A stretch of DNA of 64,000 nt from Patescibacteria group bacterium (GTDB lineage: Bacteria; Patescibacteriota; Patescibacteriia; UBA9934). The notes under the pieces were generated by a model. It worked only from the letters and a program-made list of their open reading frames with translations. It ran no database searches and was not told the origin of the DNA. The stretch is from the NCBI GenBank assembly GCA_038064675.1, contig JBBTSM010000001.1:40446-104445 (forward strand), written 5' to 3'. Shown here piece after piece: positions 12,403-61,731 of this stretch. Position numbers and translations under genes: made by a program. How positions within the stretch are numbered: position 1 is the first letter of the stretch; every line of letters begins with the position of its first letter.

Positions 12403-12659
12403 TTTTCCGTCATCCCCGCGTAGGCGGGGATCCAGTATCATTGCAAGCTGGTGGCTCGGATATACATTCTTTTGCACTCCGCGCGAATCCCCGACGCTGC
12501 AACGTCTCGTTTGCACTCGACTGCAGCTGAGGGGCGCGTGCTCGTTGGAAGAATGTATCCTCTCCACTGGCGCTCGCGATGTCAGTCTCACTCGCCCAAT
12601 TTGCTCAAGGGTAATCCCGATCGCCCAAGCGCAGCGATCGCTCATCTTTCCTCTCCACT
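12403..12659 (+). repeat. Modular intergenic repeat of about 257 bp, copy A: TTCCGTCAT + palindrome ATCCCCGCGTAGGCGGGGAT + conserved body + GGGTAATCCCGATCGCCC tail. It fills the whole uvrD / malic-enzyme spacer
   Basis: High identity along its full length to 18932-19202 and partly to 24052-24195. Confidence 0.85.
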
Positions 12660-18931: not shown

Positions 18932-19202
18932 TTCCGTCATCACTTTTCCTTAGTCATCCCCGCGCAGGCGGGGATCCAGAATTCATCGCGAGCTGGTGGC
19001 TCGGGTACATGTTTCTTCACTGTGCGTGAACGCCATCACGCCGTAACGTCTCGCTTGCGCTCGACTACTGCTGGATGGGTGCACTGCTCGTCGCGAAACA
19101 CGCACCCTCGCCACTGGCGATCGCGATATTCATCTCACTCGCTCAATTCGCTCAAGGGTAATCCCGATCGCCCGCGCGTAGCGCTCGCTCATCCATCTTT
19201 CT
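18932..19202 (+). repeat. Modular intergenic repeat of about 270 bp, copy B (TTCCGTCAT ... GTCATCCCCGCGCAGGCGGGGATCCAG ... GGGTAATCCCGATCGCCC); fills the GH5 / trmH spacer
   Basis: Aligns with 12403-12659 along its length. Begins 6 nt after a stop and ends at the next start codon. Confidence 0.85.
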
Positions 19203-19880
19203 ATGCTCACACCAGCTCAAGAAAAACTCTTACAGCAGCTCACCACCAAGCGGGGCAGACGTGAGGCGGAAATGTTTGTGATTGAGGGAGAAAAGTTTGT
19301 TCGCGACGCTGGCGGACTGGTGGAGTTTACGTTTACGCCTGCCGATACCACGAGATTCGCGGAGTACGTTTCCACGGAAACGCCCCAGGCATTTGCTGCT
19401 GTTGCTCGTATTCCAAAAGTCACAATGAAACGGTTTGCGGAATCGGCAACAATTGTTGTGCTCGATGGCGTGCAGGATCCAGGAAATGTTGGAACCATTT
19501 TGCGTGCTGCGCTCGGATTTGGTGCGAGTGTTCTCCTTGTAGAGTCTGCGGAGGTGACGAATCCAAAGGTGGTGCGCGCATCGGCGAGTGCAATTTTGCG
19601 AACACCGTGGATGACCGTGGCCCGAGAAGACGCTGGTGCAATTATTGCATCATTTCACAGGCCAGTGTATCGGCTTGAGTTGCGCGACGGTGCGGTGCTG
19701 CCGGACGAAATTCGCATAGAGCCGTGCGTGGTTGTTGCGGGCAGCGAAGGGAAGGGAATTACGCTTCCTGTTGCGGGAACATCTGTAGCAATTCCACATA
19801 ATCCAGCGCTCGAATCGCTGAACGTTGGTGTTGCAACGTCAATTATTTTGTATGAACGCTCCAAGCAAATCACCGTTTAG
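19203..19880 (+). CDS. SpoU/TrmH-family RNA 2'-O-methyltransferase
   Basis: VLDGVQDPGNVGTILR, GSEGKG and ESLNV motifs of the SPOUT class. Confidence 0.8.
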   Translation: MLTPAQEKLLQQLTTKRGRREAEMFVIEGEKFVRDAGGLVEFTFTPADTTRFAEYVSTETPQAFAAVARIPKVTMKRFAESATIVVLDGVQDPGNVGTILRAALGFGASVLLVESAEVTNPKVVRASASAILRTPWMTVAREDAGAIIASFHRPVYRLELRDGAVLPDEIRIEPCVVVAGSEGKGITLPVAGTSVAIPHNPALESLNVGVATSIILYERSKQITV

Positions 19881-21057
19881 TGTTTTGCAGCAGCATGGCG
19901 CTGCGCGACGGGGCACCTTGAATACCATGCACGGCGTCGTAGAAACGCCGGTGTTTATGCCGATCGCCACGGCTGGTGCGTTAAAGACGTTGTTGCCAAG
20001 CGAGGTGACGAATCTTGGCGCGTCGATTATTTTGGGGAACACGTATCACCTTTTGCTTCGCCCGGGCGAAGAGGAATTGAAGAAGCTCGGCGGCGTTCGA
20101 TCATTTATGCATTGGGACGGTCCGTTGCTGACGGATAGTGGGGGATACCAAGTGTTTAGTTTGTCCAAGTTGAATAAGACAGACGACGATGGCGTAACGT
20201 TTCAGTCACATATCGACGGGAGTTCGCATCGGCTTACTGCGGAACGATCGATGGAAATTCAAGATGCAATTGGTTCGTCCATTCGCATGCAGTTCGACGA
20301 CGTCGCGGCAGGAAATTCGACTCGCGATCGGTACACGGAAGCGATGGAACGATCGCTCCGTTGGGCCGCGCGATCGAAGGCAAAATTTAATGAACTTGTT
20401 TCCACGACAACCCTCCCCCTTACGAAGGGGGAGTTGGAGGGGGTCCGACCATTACTCTTTGGCATCATCCAAGGTGGCACACACCTCGATCTTCGCGCGC
20501 GATCGCTTCAGGGCCTTACTGATATCGGCTTTGATGGATACGCGATTGGCGGACTTTCTGTTGGCGAATCGCGTGAGGACGCATTTCGTATTGTGCGATC
20601 GTTGGCAAAAGAAATGCCAACGGATCGGCCACGATATTTTATGGGCGGTGGAATGCCAGAAGAAATTGTTGCGTATGTTTCGTTTGGTGTGGACATGTTC
20701 GATTGTGTGTTGCCTACACGCAACGCTCGGCACGGATCGTTGTTTGTCTGGAAGGGAAATCCAAAGGATGCAGTTCGCGAGGCGTTTACTCGGGCAATGG
20801 ACGGCGCGGCAGATTTTCGTATCGCGGAAGCGTTGTACGAAAAGATCCAAATCACGAACGAACGATTTACTGCCGACGAAACACCGATTGATTTCTGGAA
20901 TGACGCTGAAACGTCAAAAACGTTTTCTCGGGCGTATCTGCGTCATCTTTTTAAAACCGGTGAAACGCTCGGACTTCGGCTGGCAACACTGCAAAATCTG
21001 GGCTTTTATCTGAGAATGATGGAGGAACTTCGTGAATGCACAGCGAATCCCTTGTGA
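19852..21057 (+). CDS. tgt: Queuine tRNA-ribosyltransferase carrying a roughly 15-aa in-frame insertion (TTLPLTKGELEGVRP)
   Basis: Aligns with E. coli Tgt from GVVETPVFMP through MFDCVLPTRNARHG. The insertion sits before the FGIIQGG block, where E. coli has only GNKNA. Confidence 0.9.
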   Translation: MNAPSKSPFSVLQQHGAARRGTLNTMHGVVETPVFMPIATAGALKTLLPSEVTNLGASIILGNTYHLLLRPGEEELKKLGGVRSFMHWDGPLLTDSGGYQVFSLSKLNKTDDDGVTFQSHIDGSSHRLTAERSMEIQDAIGSSIRMQFDDVAAGNSTRDRYTEAMERSLRWAARSKAKFNELVSTTTLPLTKGELEGVRPLLFGIIQGGTHLDLRARSLQGLTDIGFDGYAIGGLSVGESREDAFRIVRSLAKEMPTDRPRYFMGGGMPEEIVAYVSFGVDMFDCVLPTRNARHGSLFVWKGNPKDAVREAFTRAMDGAADFRIAEALYEKIQITNERFTADETPIDFWNDAETSKTFSRAYLRHLFKTGETLGLRLATLQNLGFYLRMMEELRECTANPL

Positions 21058-21089: not shown

Positions 21090-23087
21090 ATGAATCGTAC
21101 CGCGATTGGTGCATTTTTCCTTGTAGTGTTCGCTGTAGGCGCCGGTGTCCTGTCCTTTCCGAAAGAATGGAATGGTGCAATGGCTGCAATGAAGGACAAG
21201 GTAGGTTTTCACCTTCCGTATGTTCCGGAAAACGACTTTACCCTTGGTTTAGACCTGAAGGGCGGTGCACACTTGGTGTATGAGGCCGACATGTCGTCCA
21301 TCGACGAAGCTGAACGCGAAACCGCGCTTGGTGGAGTGCGCGATGTGGTGGAACGTCGTGTGAACGCATTCGGTGTTGCAGAACCAATTGTCCAAACGAA
21401 CATCGCCGACGGTCACTACCGTGTGTTGGTGGATCTTCCTGGCGTTACCGACGTGAAAGATGCAATTGCGCAGATTGGTGAAACGCCGGTGCTGGCCTTC
21501 CGTACGCCAATTACCGACGTGAGCACCACGCCAACTGCTGAACAGCAGCAGCAAATTGACGACGCGCAGAAGACTGAGCGTGTTGCTGCGCTTGCGGTGA
21601 TGGATCGCGCACTTGCCGGCGAAGACTTTGCAGCGCTCGCAAAAGAATATTCCATTGATGCAACCACTAAGGATATCGGCGGATATGTTGGGTTTGTTGT
21701 TGCCGACGACGCAGAATACGACGGGCTTGTGACACAGTTCGAAAAGGGCCGTACGAAGTTCGGTGTCGTCAATGGCTTGTACGAAGGCACAAGCACAATG
21801 CATATCGTGAAGTACATCAGCAAGAAAACAGAATCTGAGCCACGGATCTCACACATTCTCATTTGTTACGCTGGCGCTCCAAGCTGTACGCAGTCACGAA
21901 CAAAGGAAGAGGCACTCGCGCTTGCAACACAGCTTCAGGCAGAAGCAACAACAAAAAACTTTGCTGATTTGGCAAAAACGAATTCCGACGATGGTGGGAG
22001 CAAGGATGTTGGCGGAGACGTTGGATATGTTACGCGAGGCAAAATGGTGAAGCCATTTGAAGACGCCGCATATGCAACGCGCGATACCAAAATTTCCGCT
22101 GTGGTGGAATCAGAATATGGTTATCATATTTTGTATCGTGTCGGTTCCCGTCCATCACGTAGCTACGAAATTGCGCAGATCGAAATGCCTTGGACGACCG
22201 CATCTGACATTTTGACGGTGGATCCTTGGAAGAATACAGAACTTTCTGGAAAGGATGTGAAGCACGCATCGGTGGCGTTCGATCAGACTACTGGTGCGCC
22301 GTACATCGTGCTCGATTTCAATGAAAACGGTACGCAACTGTTCGGTGAACTCACAAAAGATAATGTTGGAAAAGTCATCGGCATTTTCTTGGACGGTCAG
22401 CCAATCACCACGCCTGTTGTTCAAGAGCCAATCTACGGCGGTCAGGCTTCTATCACTGGAAGCTTCACTATCGCTGAGGCGAAGCTGCTTGCACAGCGGT
22501 TGAACGCTGGAGCATTGCCAGTGCCAATTTCGGTGGTCAGCCAGCAGACTATTGGTCCAGCGCTTGGAACTGCATCGCTTGATCTGAGCGTGAAAGCGGG
22601 CCTCATCGGGTTCCTTCTTGTTGCGCTGTTCGTGATTGGATACTACCGCCTTCCTGGCGTGGTCGCCGTTGGTGCTCTTGGCGTATACGCCTTGATCAAC
22701 TTGGCGCTCTTCAAGATTCTCGGCGTTACCATCACCTTGTCTGGTATTGCTGGATTCATCTTCTCCCTGGGTATTGCGGTGGACGCGAACGTGCTCATCT
22801 TTGAGCGCCTGAAGGAAGAGCTTCGCAATGGTCGCGATCTCCCAACGGCAATGGAGGAAGCCTTCCGCCGTGCATGGCCTTCGATTCGCGACGGTAACGC
22901 AACGACGCTTATCGCGACCGGAATTCTGTACACGATGACATCTGGTTCGGTTCGTGGATTCGCGCTCACCTTGGCGCTTGGTGTGTTCGTGTCGTTGTTC
23001 TGCGCGTTCGTGGTGTCGCGCTTTGTTCTTCGTCGTCTTGCGCGTATGCCAAAACTGCGAAAGTCGTTCTTCTTCCTTGGTCTCTAA
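21090..23087 (+). CDS. secD: Protein translocase subunit SecD with two tandem parvulin-type PPIase domains inserted in the periplasmic P1 region
   Basis: N-terminal TM helix. P1-base motifs LGLDLKGGAHLVY and FLDGQPITTPVV. C-terminal 6-TM bundle. In between lie two PpiC-like domains (..FAALAKEYS.D...GGYVGF.., and HILICYAG...FADLAKTNSDDGGSKDVGGDVGYVTRGKMVKPFEDAAYA...EYGYHILYRV). Confidence 0.85.
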   Translation: MNRTAIGAFFLVVFAVGAGVLSFPKEWNGAMAAMKDKVGFHLPYVPENDFTLGLDLKGGAHLVYEADMSSIDEAERETALGGVRDVVERRVNAFGVAEPIVQTNIADGHYRVLVDLPGVTDVKDAIAQIGETPVLAFRTPITDVSTTPTAEQQQQIDDAQKTERVAALAVMDRALAGEDFAALAKEYSIDATTKDIGGYVGFVVADDAEYDGLVTQFEKGRTKFGVVNGLYEGTSTMHIVKYISKKTESEPRISHILICYAGAPSCTQSRTKEEALALATQLQAEATTKNFADLAKTNSDDGGSKDVGGDVGYVTRGKMVKPFEDAAYATRDTKISAVVESEYGYHILYRVGSRPSRSYEIAQIEMPWTTASDILTVDPWKNTELSGKDVKHASVAFDQTTGAPYIVLDFNENGTQLFGELTKDNVGKVIGIFLDGQPITTPVVQEPIYGGQASITGSFTIAEAKLLAQRLNAGALPVPISVVSQQTIGPALGTASLDLSVKAGLIGFLLVALFVIGYYRLPGVVAVGALGVYALINLALFKILGVTITLSGIAGFIFSLGIAVDANVLIFERLKEELRNGRDLPTAMEEAFRRAWPSIRDGNATTLIATGILYTMTSGSVRGFALTLALGVFVSLFCAFVVSRFVLRRLARMPKLRKSFFFLGL

Positions 23088-24051: not shown

Positions 24052-24195
24052 CATCGCGAGCTGGTGGCTCGGATACATTCTTCTGCACTCCGCGCGAATC
24101 CCCTACGCTGCGACGTCTCGCTGATGCTCGACTGCAGCTGTGGGGCGGCGTGCTCGTTGGAAGAATGTATCCTCACCACTGGCGTTCGCGATGAC
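24052..24195 (+). repeat. Modular intergenic repeat, partial copy C (central body only); downstream of secF
   Basis: CATCGCGAGCTGGTGGCTCGGATACATTCTT...GTGCTCGTTGGAAGAATGTATCCTC.CCACTGGCG.TCGCGATG is collinear with 12436-12590. Confidence 0.8.
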
Positions 24196-29589: not shown

Positions 29590-30033
29590 ATGACCGACGA
29601 CGAAAAAATCCAGCTTGGCGCGGTGCTCGAAATCGTCCAGTCCATGCAGAAGACCATGGTCGCAATGCAGGATGATATTGGGGCAATTCAGGGCGTTATG
29701 GCCACGAAGGATGATCTCAAGAATTTCGCCACGAAAGATGACCTTAAGAATTTTGCTACGAAAGGCGACCTTAAGAATTTTGCCACGAAGGATGACGTTA
29801 CTGATATTCGGGGCGATATTGCGGCCATTAAGGAAGATGTTGAGTTCCTTAAAGACAGTGTGGCTACGAAGGATGATCTCGGCAGTCTCAAATCCGAGGT
29901 TTTCGAACACATCGATGGCTTTGCGCAGCAGAACCAGAAGTTCGATATCGAGTTGGTTGCGGCAAGGTCCCAGTTCAATCGGGTAGAAGAACGTGTGGAG
30001 GTTTTAGAATTGAAAGCGGGGATTGGGGCGTAA
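29590..30033 (+). CDS. Small coiled-coil protein with 9-aa tandem repeats (ATKDDLKNF x3+)
   Basis: ORF with three and a half perfect 27-bp DNA repeats at 29701-29808. Confidence 0.5.
   Translation: MTDDEKIQLGAVLEIVQSMQKTMVAMQDDIGAIQGVMATKDDLKNFATKDDLKNFATKGDLKNFATKDDVTDIRGDIAAIKEDVEFLKDSVATKDDLGSLKSEVFEHIDGFAQQNQKFDIELVAARSQFNRVEERVEVLELKAGIGA
29701..29808 (+). repeat. 27-bp in-frame tandem repeat (3.5 units)
   Basis: GCCACGAAGGATGATCTCAAGAATTTC / GCCACGAAAGATGACCTTAAGAATTTT / GCTACGAAAGGCGACCTTAAGAATTTT / partial unit. Confidence 0.9.
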
Positions 30034-35770: not shown

Positions 35771-37744
35771 ATGGTCACTCTCCGTGAACGCGATGGTGGA
35801 ACATATGGGAAACGCCTCCGAATGTTGCGAGGTGTTCTTTTTGCTGTCTTTGGCGTGATTTGGATCCGATTATTCGTGCTTCAGGTGGTTTCTGCCCAGT
35901 TTTATCAAGACATCGCCAACGGGAAATATTCGCTGTACGAAGAGCTGGTTCCAGAACGCGGCAAGATCACCGTTCACGATTTTGATGATTCTACGCCATA
36001 CGACGTGGCAACGAACGAGCCTCGAGCGGTAGTGACTGCGGATCCTCGAAAAATCACGGACGCGACCGACGCGGGTAAACGCATCGCGCAGGCGTTGGGA
36101 TGGGAAGGTGTAGACGAATACGATCGCTACGCGCTGATCGCGAGCCTTGAGGCTCAAGGAAAACAGGACGAAGCCGACTCGCTCCGATCATTGACGGCAT
36201 GTGCTCCCCTTACGAAGGCGCTCGACGAGCCTGAGTTGGGCGAGGAGAGCGTAGTTGGAGGGGGTGTCGACTCCGATGTTGCCGATGTCACTCCGACCCC
36301 ACCCCCCGAACCCGTCGCGGAGTCCGATGAATGCCTTCAGGAAGACGCGAACGTCAAAAAGATTACTGATCTTATCGCGCGTCTTGGAAAGCACGACGAT
36401 CCATATGAGCCGGTCGCCGAGGGTGTCGATGCAGAATCGCTTGATCGGTTGTTGGCTCTGAACATCGACGGCATTTCATATGTCCTCAAGGATTCGCGAT
36501 CGTATCCAGAAAAGGGATTCGGTGGCCATGTACTCGGATTTGTGGGAAAGGACGATTCGGATAACCCAGTGGGGAATTATGGGCTGGAGGGATACTTTAA
36601 TGATTTTCTTTCAGGAAAGCCGGGGGAGATTTCATCTCAGCTCGCGAGTAGAGCATATACCCCAGCGATTGACGGTGGTTCGTTAATGCTGACGATTGAT
36701 CGCACGGTGCAGTACACCGCATGCAAGATGCTTCGCGACGGTGTGCAGCAATATCATGCCGATACCGGCGTGCTCGTTATTGTGGAGCCATCTACGGGAA
36801 GAATCCTCGCGATGTGCGGCAGTCCAGATTTTGACCCAGCAGAGTATTCGAAAGTCGGAAGCATTTCTGATTTTAATAACCAGGCAGTTTTTACGCCGTA
36901 CGAACCGGGATCGATTTTTAAACCGTTTACGCTTGCGGCAGGTATTGATACGGGCGCAATTACGCCAAATACAATTTTCGACGATCCTGGATTTGTAAAA
37001 CTTGATGACCGAACCATTCGCAACGCGCTCCAGAAGTCGTATGGAAAGATTACGATGACCCAGGGTCTTGAAGAATCGGTGAACACCGCAATGGTGTATG
37101 CCATGCAGCGCACCGGAAAAGACACGTTTACGCAGTACGTCAAAAACTTTGGATTTGGAACGCTCACAGGTATCACGCTGAACACAGAAGTTTCAGGAAC
37201 CGTTGCGTTGCTCGATGAACCAGGAATTGTGTATGCCGGCACCGCGAGTTTCGGGCAAGGCATCACAGCAACTCCACTACAGGTTGTGATGGGCTATGCC
37301 GCAATCGCGAACGGCGGAGCGTTGATGGTTCCACAAATTGTGGATCAGATGGAATATTCCGACGGCACCATTGATAAAAAACTGCCAGTAAAAATTCGTC
37401 AGGTTATCGACGCAAAGACTGCGGCCACGGTTGGGGGAATGCTCGTGTCTGTGGTGGAGAATGGCCATGGAAAGCGCGCATCGGTTCCGGGATATTGGAT
37501 TGCAGGTAAAACGGGAACCGCGCAGATTGCTGAAAACGGTGGATATTCAGAGACTGCGTTTAATGGATCGTTTGCAGGATTTGGTCCTGTTGAAGATCCA
37601 AAATTTGCGATGATCGTAAAGCTTTCCAATCCAAAGACCGTCTCCAACCTTGGTGTAGCATGGGGCGAGGCAACTGCCGCTCCAGTGTTTGGTGAAATCG
37701 CAAAGTTCCTTATGCAGTACTACCGCATTCCACCGACGAGGTAG
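35771..37744 (+). CDS. Penicillin-binding protein (class B transpeptidase, PBP2/FtsI-like) with an in-frame repeat-element insertion
   Basis: N-terminal TM helix. SxxK (GSIFKPF), SxN (ESVNTA) and KTGT (AGKTGTAQ) motifs. Insertion APLTKALDEPELGEESVVGGGVDSD... at 36204-36266. Confidence 0.85.
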   Translation: MVTLRERDGGTYGKRLRMLRGVLFAVFGVIWIRLFVLQVVSAQFYQDIANGKYSLYEELVPERGKITVHDFDDSTPYDVATNEPRAVVTADPRKITDATDAGKRIAQALGWEGVDEYDRYALIASLEAQGKQDEADSLRSLTACAPLTKALDEPELGEESVVGGGVDSDVADVTPTPPPEPVAESDECLQEDANVKKITDLIARLGKHDDPYEPVAEGVDAESLDRLLALNIDGISYVLKDSRSYPEKGFGGHVLGFVGKDDSDNPVGNYGLEGYFNDFLSGKPGEISSQLASRAYTPAIDGGSLMLTIDRTVQYTACKMLRDGVQQYHADTGVLVIVEPSTGRILAMCGSPDFDPAEYSKVGSISDFNNQAVFTPYEPGSIFKPFTLAAGIDTGAITPNTIFDDPGFVKLDDRTIRNALQKSYGKITMTQGLEESVNTAMVYAMQRTGKDTFTQYVKNFGFGTLTGITLNTEVSGTVALLDEPGIVYAGTASFGQGITATPLQVVMGYAAIANGGALMVPQIVDQMEYSDGTIDKKLPVKIRQVIDAKTAATVGGMLVSVVENGHGKRASVPGYWIAGKTGTAQIAENGGYSETAFNGSFAGFGPVEDPKFAMIVKLSNPKTVSNLGVAWGEATAAPVFGEIAKFLMQYYRIPPTR

Positions 37745-37756
37745 TCCGTGACAAAG

Positions 37757-37920
37757 CCCTCCCCTTACGAAGGCGCTCGACGAGCTGAAGCGGGTGAGGA
37801 GAGTGAGTTAGGAGGGGTCTGATCGTGAAGTGACCTTGGATGGATGTGATGAGAACGGCAGGAGTGACGCATTATCGGCGACGCTCGTCGAGCCTGAGTT
37901 GGGCGAGGAGGGTGAGGGGT
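37757..37920 (+). repeat. Two intergenic copies of the CCCTCCCCTTACGAAGG / CGCTCG(A/T)CGAGC CTGAGTTGGGCGAGGAG repeat unit also found inside the PBP gene
   Basis: 37757-37820 and 37878-37920 match 36204-36266. Confidence 0.8.
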
Positions 37921-38294
37921 ATTCGATTTCAAACAGGGTGTTTTGTTAACGCAACTCATTTGCGTTAAGAAAACGCTGGTCGATTGTAGCGATCTGCGTG
38001 GTCGGCGATAATGCCAGTTACGATCATTGATCGTGTATTTCTGAAATCGATTTCATTGTTTCTCGATTTCCGGCTCAGATCACATTGTGTTGCTCAGTTT
38101 TAAAGCCTCAAAATTCGAGGGTATCGATTCCTGCCGCAGTACCTCGCACTCCCGGAGTTCACGAGCCCCCTCCTTCTCCCCCATCCCCATCCGGGGACAA
38201 GTAAATGGGGGAGGGCTATCACCATCCCGTCACAACCCCTCAAAGGGTCAGTTGAGGTTCACTTTTCCCCCATTTTCCCCTACACTGCCTGCAT

Positions 38295-54538: not shown

Positions 54539-55114
54539 ATGACGGACGAAGAATTGAAAGACGAAGAGGGCAAAGGGCAGGGGGCAGAGGAATCCGTCAT
54601 CCCAAATGACTCTGGTCATCCCCGCGCAGGCGGGGATCCATCATCGGACCTCGAAGCTCTCCAGCAGAAATGCGCCGAATACCTTCACGGCTGGAAGCGT
54701 GCCCTCGCAGACTACGAAAATCTGCAAAAGCAAAACTCCAGCGCTCGTGACGACGACCGCCGACGCGTTCGATCGAATTTGGCGGAGGATCTGCTCCCCG
54801 TCGTCGACAACTTCGGCTACGTCACCAAGCACGTCCCCGACATCACCGCTTGTCCCGACGACTTTAAGAAAAAGTTCGACACCTGGTTCCAAGGCATCGG
54901 CCACATCGAACGCCAATTCGCGGAAGCGATGAAGAACATGGGAGTTGAGGCGATCCCAAGTGTCGGAACCATCTTCGACCCAAACCTCCACGAAAGTGGT
55001 GGCTCACGATCGGAGCCTGGAAAGAAAGAACACGAGATCATCGAGGAACTCATCAAAGGCTGGAAGATCGGTGACGTCGTGTTGCGACCTGCAAAAGTAA
55101 TCGTTAATGAATAA
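54539..55114 (+). CDS. grpE: Nucleotide exchange factor GrpE (N-terminal region contains a palindromic repeat unit in frame)
   Basis: Coiled-coil plus a C-terminal beta domain. Lies upstream of dnaK. Confidence 0.85.
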
Positions 55115-60084: not shown

Positions 60085-61731
60085 ATGGCCGAAACGCTTT
60101 ACCGAAAATACCGTCCACAGTGCTTTGCGGATGTTGCGGAACAGGAGCACGTTTTACGAACAATTCAGCAGCAGTTGGCAAAGAATACGGTTGCACATGC
60201 GTATCTGTTTTCTGGTCCACGCGGGACGGGAAAAACGACTATCGCCCGATTGCTCGCGAAGGCGCTCAACTGCGAGAACCGCAAGGCGGGGGAGTCGGAG
60301 CCGTGTAACACGTGTTCCTCGTGTACCGACTTTGCGTCGGGCAGATTCATGTCGTGCATCGAGATCGACGCCGCATCGCAAACTGGCGTCGACAATGTTC
60401 GCGATAACATCATCGAGAACGCGCGCTTCGCTCCAAGCCGCGGGTCGTTCAAGGTATTTATTCTCGACGAAGTTCACATGCTTTCCGGTTCGTCATTCAA
60501 CGCGTTATTGAAGACGCTCGAAGAACCGCCGGCACATGCTATTTTCATTCTCGCAACAACCGAGCTTCATAAAATCCCCGCAACCATCGCGTCACGCTGC
60601 CAGCGTTTCGAGTTTCATCGCGTGCCGCCAGTAGTGATGATGCCGCGCCTGAAGAAGATTTCGGAAGCCGAGGGCTTCACGATCGACGACGATGTTCTTG
60701 CGCAGATTGCTCGCTTGAGTGAGGGCTGTTTGCGCGACGCAGAAAGTTTGCTCGGGCAAGTGCTCGCGCTGGGTGAAAAGAACGTCACACTCGCGGTGGC
60801 CTCGTTGGTATTGCCGATGACGAATATTGCCGTTGTTACCGATATCGTCGATGCAGTTGCGGTGAATGATGCGCAAAAGGCGCTGAAAATTGTCGGAACA
60901 TTTGTTGCTGACGGGGGTTCGATAAAACATCTCATCGAAGAGCTTCTTGAATACGTTCGTACGGTGATGTTCGCCGCATTCGGCGACACCACGATGGATG
61001 CGTACGACACGAAGACCGTTGAGCGATTGCGCGCAGCGGGATCGGTATTCGGAGTTTCTCGATCTCAAATGTTCCTCGACGCGCTGTTGTCCGCAAGAAC
61101 GCGATCGAGCTTGCCGGCAATCCCGCAGATCCCACTTGAGATTGCGATTTTGGATGTGTGTTCACCTCCCCCCGACCCCCTCCTTCGAAAGGAGGGGGAG
61201 AGGTCGGCGACATCGCTCCCCCTTACGAAGGGGGAGTCGGAGGGGGTGAAGAGAGCGATTGCCGCTCCCGCCGCCCGAGTGATTCCTGTCCTTCCTCCGT
61301 CACGTGTCATCGAAGAGCCAGCCACCCCAGACGCACCGATTCGATACGACTTTGCACCAATTCAGCAAATGGAATCTGTTGTTGCGGATCAGCCGTCGGG
61401 ATTAGCAGAAGCGCCAATCTTTCCCCTCGAGGAAATCGTGAACAAATGGGAACGGTGTATCGCGATCATCGCAGAAGACAACGTGGCACTTCCGCTCGTT
61501 CTTCGTGGCGCTGTTCCGGTGAAGGTTGAAGGATCGGTGGTGACGATTTCCTGTGCGTACGCGTTTCACGCCGATGCATTGAAAGAAGCAAAAGCAAGAA
61601 CGCTCGTTGAAGATGCGATTGAAAAAGTATTGCAACAGCGCGTAACAATCGTTTCCGTTCATGTTCCCGTAAAAGAAACGAGCGACGCAGTAACAGACTT
61701 CGTCAGTCAGCTCGGCGGGTCTCTTGCATAA
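60085..61731 (+). CDS. dnaX: DNA polymerase III subunit gamma/tau, with two palindromic repeat units inserted in frame in the linker after domain III
   Basis: AHAYLFSGPRGTGKTT, zinc module CxxC...C, ILDEVHMLS and SRCQRF motifs. Insertion SPPPDPLLRKEGERSATSLPLTKGESEGV at 61165-61248. Confidence 0.9.
   Translation: MAETLYRKYRPQCFADVAEQEHVLRTIQQQLAKNTVAHAYLFSGPRGTGKTTIARLLAKALNCENRKAGESEPCNTCSSCTDFASGRFMSCIEIDAASQTGVDNVRDNIIENARFAPSRGSFKVFILDEVHMLSGSSFNALLKTLEEPPAHAIFILATTELHKIPATIASRCQRFEFHRVPPVVMMPRLKKISEAEGFTIDDDVLAQIARLSEGCLRDAESLLGQVLALGEKNVTLAVASLVLPMTNIAVVTDIVDAVAVNDAQKALKIVGTFVADGGSIKHLIEELLEYVRTVMFAAFGDTTMDAYDTKTVERLRAAGSVFGVSRSQMFLDALLSARTRSSLPAIPQIPLEIAILDVCSPPPDPLLRKEGERSATSLPLTKGESEGVKRAIAAPAARVIPVLPPSRVIEEPATPDAPIRYDFAPIQQMESVVADQPSGLAEAPIFPLEEIVNKWERCIAIIAEDNVALPLVLRGAVPVKVEGSVVTISCAYAFHADALKEAKARTLVEDAIEKVLQQRVTIVSVHVPVKETSDAVTDFVSQLGGSLA

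Follow-up and report, generated by a model that had tools for sequence, protein, structure and literature searches.

This study concerns a stretch of 64,000 nt (in the following, the window) from the metagenome-assembled genome (MAG) of a groundwater member of the Patescibacteria, and in particular a short palindromic repeat unit that is located within its tgt gene. The gene (19852..21057, + strand) encodes queuine tRNA-ribosyltransferase (PF01702), its catalytic motifs are intact, and the protein aligns with the TGT of Z. mobilis with an E value of 4e-103. An identical Tgt protein is also encoded in the NCBI assembly GCA_964357295.1. The window belongs to a contig of 149.6 kb that was obtained from Hainich groundwater (well H41). 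The window has a GC content of about 51%, and nearly all of its genes lie on the + strand.

The palindromic unit in tgt and its reading frame

A first-pass annotation of the window had described a GC-rich nested palindrome at 20411-20446 in tgt, and the letters were confirmed on re-reading. The unit itself (CTCCCCCTTACGAAGGGGGAGTTGGAGGGGGT, 20413..20444, + strand) comprises 32 nt and consists of a hairpin and a G-rich tail, that is, a C-arm (CTCCCCCTT, 20413-20421), the loop ACG (20422-20424), a G-arm (AAGGGGGAG, 20425-20433), the dinucleotide TT, and the G-tail (GGAGGGGGT, 20436-20444). When folded as single-stranded DNA (ssDNA), either strand forms a perfect 9-bp stem. As had also been proposed, the unit is in frame with its host gene: the open reading frame (ORF) 19852-21057 reads through it as LPLTKGELEG(V).

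No Rfam family was found at the units, whether in the window at gathering thresholds or in seven unit-bearing loci at E<=1, and the HIP1 motif (GCGATCGC) was not enriched (6 observed vs 3.5 expected). The search of the literature did not retrieve the exact unit string, nor anything relevant on in-frame palindromes in the Candidate Phyla Radiation (CPR).

Absence of the tgt unit from close relatives

Homologues of Tgt with 88-92% identity have 391-392 residues, vs 401 in the protein of the window, and what they lack is exactly LPLTKGELEG (10 residues, 30 nt). The contigs of these relatives are syntenic (SpoU methylase, tgt, secD, secF), and a net 30-nt gap at the unit is seen in the loci L003-L007, which in the DNA alignment of L005-L007 is clean. 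An ancestral origin of the peptide, the alternative to the insertion that had been proposed, is not borne out by these orthologues, nor by the relatives of DnaX described below, which lack the units as well. Judged from these alignments, the tgt copy is a recent in-frame gain of net 30 nt in this lineage.

In one relative (L003:10001-11179, Tgt protein P0004), the insertion site reads NKGVEGDRP, and the underlying DNA (AAAGGAGTGGAAGGAGAC) is faintly similar to the right half of the unit. This resemblance could represent either a decayed remnant or chance.

Location of the insert in the Tgt protein

In the aligned Z. mobilis TGT, a short loop connects the RWAKRSRDAF helix with the LFGIQQG strand at the corresponding position. 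An AlphaFold2 model of the Tgt of the window (mean pLDDT 86.5) shows residues 186-200 as a coil between the helix 158-185 and the strand 201-206, with pLDDT values below 50 at residues 189-194. In the model, the insert thus appears as ten mostly hydrophilic residues in a flexible coil that joins a helix to a barrel strand and leaves the catalytic motifs intact. In another CPR lineage (L220:501-1736, Tgt protein P0027), the same loop contains an imperfect palindrome that differs from the unit and comprises about 75 nt (..CGGCAGTCGGGAAGG..CCATCCCGACGTCCGACTGCCG..), and therefore the loop is a tolerant site. The prediction that the insertions are located in surface loops agrees with the modelled coil of Tgt, and for the DnaX and penicillin-binding protein (PBP) sites it is better worded as variable linkers.

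It should be noted that the Tgt proteins of the window and of all CPR relatives have two peculiarities (in the window protein at residues of about 303-331 and 345-355): they contain an additional helical stretch of about 29 residues, and the zinc-site cysteines of Z. mobilis TGT are absent from them ('sechcavcq' aligns with 'fwndaetsk'). The SecD protein of the window (21090-23087) has PpiC-type rotamase domains (PF13616, PF00639) fused within it, and the same is true for its relatives.

Further copies in the window

Copies in tgt, dnaX, a PBP gene, and intergenic DNA had been listed in the first-pass annotation, and all four sets of coordinates proved to be accurate. Two copies of the 21-nt hairpin core, at 20413 and 61216, are found on the + strand (vs none in 100 dinucleotide-preserving shuffles of the window), and the 13-mer CCCCTTACGAAGG occurs in 4 exact copies (at 20416, 36206, 37761 and 61219), while 0.7 copies would be expected even if up to two mismatches were allowed.

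The dnaX gene (60085..61731, + strand), which encodes the gamma/tau subunit of the clamp loader, contains a forward unit (61216..61247, + strand) that is identical to the tgt unit at 31/32 positions and is translated as LPLTKGESEG(V). It has a reverse-oriented partner unit (61164..61198, + strand), which consists of the C-tail ACCTCCCCCC, the dinucleotide GA and the hairpin CCCCCTCCTT-CGA-AAGGAGGGGG. Together with a 17-nt spacer, the segments 61164-61198 and 61216-61247 make up a 'tails-out' inverted doublet of 84 nt, which folds into a three-way structure (-28.8 kcal/mol, z = -3.8) and is located in a variable linker just past domain III. The three closest relatives of DnaX (90% identity) have a plain Ala/Pro-rich linker, from which both units are absent, where the window has SPPPDPLLRKEGERSATSLPLTKGESEGV. 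Remoter relatives have other repeat-derived peptides nearby (SLPLTKGEKEGV, LPLTKGKSEGV and SLPPFMEGVGG), and therefore the linker has been hit repeatedly and independently.

The gene for penicillin-binding protein 2 (PBP2/FtsI-type; 35771..37744, + strand) contains a two-hairpin variant of the unit (36204..36265, + strand; CTCCCCTTACGAAGG, a 35-nt second stem region, GTTGGAGGGGGT), which is located in a hypervariable acidic linker within the PBP_dimer region. Another two-hairpin variant (37757..37819, + strand; CCCTCCCCTTACGAAGG, a 33-nt middle, GTTAGGAGGGGTC) is intergenic. Both copies are composed of a left part (..CCCCTTACGAAGG) and a right part (GTTGGAGGGGGT / TTAGGAGGGG), and the approximately 35 nt between the two parts can form a second stem. 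The middle segment (CGCTCGTCGAGCCTGAGTTGGGCGAGGAG...) is present once more, followed by a G-rich end, at 37882..37919 (+ strand; read against 36219-36251). Nested insertion of a second mobile unit was considered for the PBP and intergenic copies, but it is not the simplest interpretation, since family members with an additional hairpin placed between G-arm and tail are common (L128, L141, L124, L196, L030, L112).

At the PBP site, the closest relative (L199, 92% identity) has 59 unrelated nt vs the 62-nt unit of the window, and other relatives have PPYEGGVG, PPFEGGDGGG or PPSQGGVGGGV. The PBP copy is thus a replacement within the hypervariable acidic linker (net +3 nt) and not a clean insertion, which qualifies the original description of the copies as in-frame insertions. 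The intergenic variant and the extra middle segment are part of a lineage-specific block of about 340 nt (37747..38085, + strand; right limit approximate), all of which, including the fourth copy, is missing from L199. As relatives lack the units at tgt, dnaX, the PBP gene and the intergenic site, all four sites are lineage-specific, and on the evidence of these comparisons the copies in DnaX (the doublet), in PBP and in the spacer were gained independently.

Distribution of the repeat family in bacteria

One genome per GTDB species was scanned with the pattern CCCCTTACGAAGG-N(5-35)-TNGGAGGGG, and matches were obtained in at least 109 genome blocks; about 8 chance matches are expected in the collection by our own estimate, which assumes a uniform base composition. 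The pattern sampled one loop type only, and the loops of partner units vary (TTCGTAA, TTGGCAA, TCCACAA). In the family form, a C-rich arm is followed by a TTNNNAA loop region and a G-rich arm and then, after 2-4 nt, by a second G-rich 'tail', and nearly all of the matches listed have this full architecture, including stem-closing bases that the pattern did not specify.

The matches listed span about ten phylum-level groups, as judged by record title, and therefore the family is not restricted to one lineage. Within the Patescibacteria, matches are found in Andersen-, Uhr-, Jackson-, Doudna- and Buchananbacteria, in Saccharibacteria and in Hainich bins. Those in the Planctomycetota include the cultured isolate Aquisphaera insulae JC669 with at least 16 blocks, and one MAG of Cellvibrio contains at least 17 blocks. 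Further matches are present in Dehalococcoidia, a cyanobacterium, Armatimonadota (Chthonomonadales), Poribacteria, a spirochaete, SAR324, and Ignavibacteria. The alternative that the element would not recur elsewhere is not borne out: many genomes have multiple copies of it, often located in frame in conserved genes.

Copies within one genome have longer flanks in common and are mostly organized as inverted doublets, for which two arrangements exist. 'Tails-in' doublets (forward, spacer, reverse) are found in Aquisphaera and Dehalococcoidia, and 'tails-out' doublets in Andersenbacteria, in Cellvibrio and in dnaX of the window, as well as in a plasmid spacer of Moraxella osloensis. In Aquisphaera insulae, the doublet is part of a repeat of at least 290 nt, which is present in near-identical copies (L017, L033, L045, L075, L083, L086, L092, L096, L107).

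Coding copies and frame usage

Long ORFs contain 45 of the 114 matches listed. The hosts that were confirmed with Pfam are UvrA (L017), SecA (L038), NAD-dependent DNA ligase (LigA, L043), LepA (L044), PheT (L095), an HhH-GPD glycosylase (Nth, L110), the CCA-adding enzyme (L052), ArgS (L032), transketolase (L077), a radical-SAM protein (L082), and a Mur ligase (L071).

The variant GGGGGAGT[CT]GGAGGGGG is open in five of the six frames. Among the matches listed, 13 of its hosts read it as PLTKGE[LS]EG and 3 as PPYEGGVGGG, 1 has it on the opposite strand, and none (0) uses the basic, Trp-containing frame SPLRRGSWRG. This frame usage indicates filtering by the encoded peptide, possibly in addition to a strand bias. 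It had been put forward that the insertions are tolerated or selected for; the reading-frame bias is in line with this, while a benefit to the host is not demonstrated.

DUF559 genes are bracketed by units

DUF559 is, to our knowledge, a large family of proteins to which no role has been assigned. When the ORFs of the at least 109 unit-bearing blocks were clustered, the only non-housekeeping family common to unrelated taxa, among the blocks listed, was a protein of about 115 residues, which was encoded in six blocks and matched PF04480 (DUF559) with E values of 1e-35 to 1e-37. Residues D54, E65, D67 and H71 are invariant in the alignment of these proteins, and thus the acidic and His motif is kept. 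In 6/6 of the blocks listed, the DUF559 gene is directly bracketed by units. The upstream flank is a forward unit 4-50 nt before the ATG, with the GGAGGGG tail placed like a Shine-Dalgarno motif, and the downstream flank is a reverse or forward unit at the stop codon. At locus L080, the upstream unit (CTCCCCCTTACGAAGGGGGAGTTAGAGGGGGT) is identical to the tgt unit at 31/32 positions.

An independent test made use of 80 JGI metagenome loci that were picked by the DUF559 protein alone. A C-arm/G-arm hairpin was found within 150 nt of the DUF559 gene on both sides in 56/80 loci, on one side in 23/80, and on neither side in 1/80, whereas only 1/39 control ORFs of the same loci had hairpins on both sides (Fisher p = 2e-13). 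Within 100 nt of the gene, the density of hairpins was 9.2 per kb on one side and 8.7 per kb on the other, vs about 0.5 per kb past 400 nt. The two flanks are inverted repeats of each other over up to 100 nt (L153), with the hairpin outermost and the tail innermost, and flank match scores of at least 36 were obtained for 29/64 pairs from the same gene vs 5/64 pairs across loci. The cassettes comprise about 0.45-0.6 kb, with terminal inverted repeats of units around a single gene for a DUF559 (Vsr-like PD-(D/E)XK) protein. The dispersed doublets of one Andersenbacteria genome are made up of the two unit types that also flank its DUF559 gene, and some cassettes (L142, L177) have whole doublets on both flanks. 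DUF559 genes with analogous flanks are also found in the cultured Picosynechococcus PCC 7002, Pseudanabaena ABRG5-3 and Deinococcus NW-56.

In viral contigs, there were 0 matches to the unit pattern, and viral relatives of the DUF559 proteins are rare (13 loci, often at contig ends); therefore a phage vector is not supported. DUF559 genes have been reported to be enriched among genes flanked by inverted repeats (PMC9881135), and the Vsr/DUF559 clade includes a proven homing endonuclease, I-Bth0305I (PMC3424549, PMC3239194). In the papers that we searched, DUF559 is not named in any title or abstract, and those consulted contain no description of the repeat-cassette architecture.

Other repeats in the window and in relatives

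A second, unrelated family of intergenic repeats of about 240 nt is present at 12409-12646, 18953-19193 and 24052-24193, and its head hairpin (GTCATCCCCGCGCAGGCGGGGATCCAG) is found alone at 54615-54644. This repeat is absent from the uvrD/malic-enzyme junction of L003, where there is a 14-nt gap; in L199, it is found 3' of the PBP gene, at a place that in the window is occupied by the unit block. A 41-nt repeat (TCCGTCATTGCGAGGAGGGTAATCCCGACGCGGCAATC) at 852-892 and 2087-2127, and inverted at 2162-2185, brackets an mltG/yceG-like gene (997-2073), and a small ORF with no Pfam match contains tandem 27-nt (9-residue) repeats with the consensus of about ATKDDLKNF (29662-29889). In the relative L005 (9100-9165; also in L006 and L007), a C5/G5 hairpin (ACCTGTCCCCCGGAGGGGGAAGG) is located within the loop of a GTCATCCCCGCG...CGGGGATCC hairpin, which looks like a palindrome nested in a palindrome.

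Discussion

The combination of lineage-specific copies in the window, the wide distribution of the family and its location on both sides of DUF559 genes leads us to propose, with a probability of about 55%, that the repeat in tgt is the solo end of a family of miniature mobile elements that is probably mobilised by DUF559 nucleases, the mobilisation being the step that we infer. The repeat family would be a miniature, non-autonomous mobile element; a DUF559 nuclease would cut at or near the structured ends of the units and would mobilise cassettes, doublets and single ends; and essential genes would keep only those insertions that have a length of 3n, a benign frame and a location in a tolerant loop.

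Several observations weigh against this proposal. Copies are few in this genome (five units in 74 kb), and all copies in the window are on the gene-rich + strand, which could instead mean a strand-specific ssDNA mechanism. The boundaries of the tgt insertion cannot be fixed to the base, and no target-site duplication was found at tgt or, in those cassettes that are best defined, outside the terminal inverted repeats. No DUF559 gene was found in the 64-kb window, in the 10 kb past its end (which also contain no further unit), or in about 90 kb of close relatives, and a partner enzyme within this genome would be hypothetical. The partnerless singlets in tgt, LigA, LepA and SecA are unlike the prediction for classical MITEs (miniature transposable elements with inverted repeats). 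In addition, we know of no nuclease or transposition activity for this DUF559 subfamily, and repeat flanks would be equally expected if DUF559 genes merely homed into pre-existing repeats.

The latter possibility would mean that the units are repeated target sites and that DUF559 genes are free-standing homing genes, which are copied by repair into cut doublets and leave half-site flanks, while the units spread by other means (template switching at hairpins, recombination). The DUF559 gene is indeed found between a forward and a reverse unit, like a homing gene in a split target, 'tails-in' doublets with short spacers exist and would be the empty sites, the lack of a target-site duplication is compatible with homing, and Vsr-like homing endonucleases are documented (PMC3239194, PMC2677866). 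Nevertheless, we regard this explanation as unlikely: it does not account for identical 32-nt singlets at unrelated coding sites, some cassettes have whole doublets and not half-sites on both sides, and no pair of occupied and empty alleles of a DUF559 cassette was found.

It is also rather improbable that the units are repetitive extragenic palindromes (REPs), or REP doublets forming hairpins (REPINs), that are moved via ssDNA by a REP-associated tyrosine transposase (RAYT, an IS200/IS605-like HUH tyrosine transposase) encoded once elsewhere, with the link to DUF559 being secondary. In favor of such a mechanism, the units are imperfect palindromes of 30 nt that are multi-copy and often form inverted doublets, intragenic REPs are documented in uvrA, ligase and other genes (PMC3733652), the four copies of the window and most coding copies are on the strand of the host gene, as would fit strand-specific insertion, and here, too, the lack of a target-site duplication is in agreement. 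However, the unit end has no conserved GTAG/CGTC tag, and the junctions are GTTG, GTCG, TTAG, CTAG or CTGG and only sometimes GTAG. A tblastn search of 1.3 Mb of unit-bearing DNA with an IS200 TnpA query, which is a weak test, gave 0 IS200/RAYT-like matches, and no RAYT gene was found in the window, nor among those genes of L001 and L197 that have Pfam labels. Among the blocks listed, DUF559 is the only gene family that is enriched beside units across taxa, and REP families are usually lineage-specific, whereas the unit is near-identical across phyla.

Lastly, it is highly improbable that the unit is an RNA or DNA signal useful to the host (a 5' stem-loop with a Shine-Dalgarno-like GGAGG, or a terminator/stabiliser), selected in intergenic DNA and only accidentally present in coding copies, since, although the G-tail GGAGGGG precedes the ATG by 4-10 nt in several DUF559 genes (L081, L039) and T-rich runs follow the Cellvibrio copies, there is no match to an Rfam family, copies are found inside genes as well as at any distance from them and in any orientation, and their presence or absence differs between close relatives, which points to turnover and not to conservation.

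In-frame palindromic insertions as such are already known. Rickettsia palindromic elements (RPEs; Ogata et al. 2000, as cited in PMC3733652) are palindromic repeats that lie in frame within conserved genes. The first-pass annotation had called the unit analogous to RPEs, and the analogy holds for the behavior, in that both are in-frame palindromic insertions in conserved, presumably functional genes, are absent from orthologues, and are tolerated in loops. It does not extend to a relationship in sequence or size: RPEs are about 100-150 bp long and confined to Rickettsia, whereas the unit has 30-32 nt (84 nt for the doublet) and is found in about ten phylum-level groups; there is no evident sequence similarity, as judged by size and composition; and RPEs are not known to have an associated enzyme.

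Intragenic GTAG/CGTC REPs are palindromes of 20-40 nt that occur as singlets and inverted dimers, and some of them, in frame in genes such as uvrA, DNA ligase and dnaE, contribute 10-30 residues to the products (Di Nocera et al. 2013, PMC3733652). The unit family likewise consists of short palindromes present as singlets and inverted dimers, with UvrA and LigA among its hosts, but the unit has no GTAG/CGTC tag, has an extra G-rich tail past the hairpin, is near-identical across phyla, and revealed no link to a RAYT. The REPIN-RAYT system (Bertels and Rainey 2011, PMC3116915) is similar in that the dispersed units are inverted doublets that form a larger hairpin upon folding, and in that repeats flank a single associated gene. 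However, the flanked gene here encodes a PD-(D/E)XK DUF559 nuclease and not a HUH tyrosine transposase, and perfect singlets are common. Thus, because the size is wrong for RPEs, the tag is absent, there is an extra tail, and the associated gene is different, the unit belongs to neither the RPE nor the GTAG/CGTC REP families.

Bacterial MITEs (Correia/NEMIS, Nezha; PMC10969869) are short non-coding derivatives, with terminal inverted repeats, of a gene-bearing element, and some of them are in frame. Similarly, terminal inverted repeats are common to dispersed doublets and DUF559 cassettes, as seen in genomes other than that of the window. The differences are that the putative autonomous element comprises only about 0.5 kb and has no known transposase, that no target-site duplication was seen, and that the units are far below the typical 70-300 bp. 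Vsr-like (EDxHD) homing endonucleases (I-Bth0305I, PMC3239194; free-standing in fractured genes, PMC2677866) share with the DUF559 proteins the clade of the nuclease fold (PMC3424549) and are selfish, mobile and small, but the known examples are found in group I introns or between split inteins, have long unique targets, and are not bracketed by dispersed hairpin repeats. In its behavior, the unit resembles a MITE family with an unusually small nuclease cassette as its putative autonomous partner. What is new here is the existence of near-identical units across phyla and of DUF559 cassettes with terminal repeats, and hence of a candidate enzyme.

More tentatively, and at slightly less than even odds, DUF559 proteins may represent nucleases of an unrecognised class of mobile cassettes of about 0.5 kb, with hairpin-bearing terminal inverted repeats, in at least 10 phyla. 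The 30-nt cassette ends would multiply alone as singlets and doublets, and in essential proteins (Tgt, DnaX, PBP2, SecA, LigA, LepA, UvrA, aminoacyl-tRNA synthetases) they would rewrite loops and linkers again and again, notably in the gene-dense Patescibacteria. If this is true, the 30-nt ends would rank with the smallest known units of mobile DNA. A role of DUF559 as a mobility nuclease is testable in cultured hosts, for example, in Picosynechococcus PCC 7002 or Deinococcus.

A candidate enzyme would thus be at hand for the familiar C-rich/G-rich hairpin runs that give rise to 'PLTKGE..', 'PPYEGG..' and 'SPFVRG..' peptides in many annotations, and in annotation and structure prediction such segments would be regarded as repeat-derived. 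For the Patescibacteria, the results show that reduced, gene-dense genomes still acquire selfish repeats, which are absorbed into protein loops, and that in this way essential enzymes obtain peptide insertions specific to a lineage.

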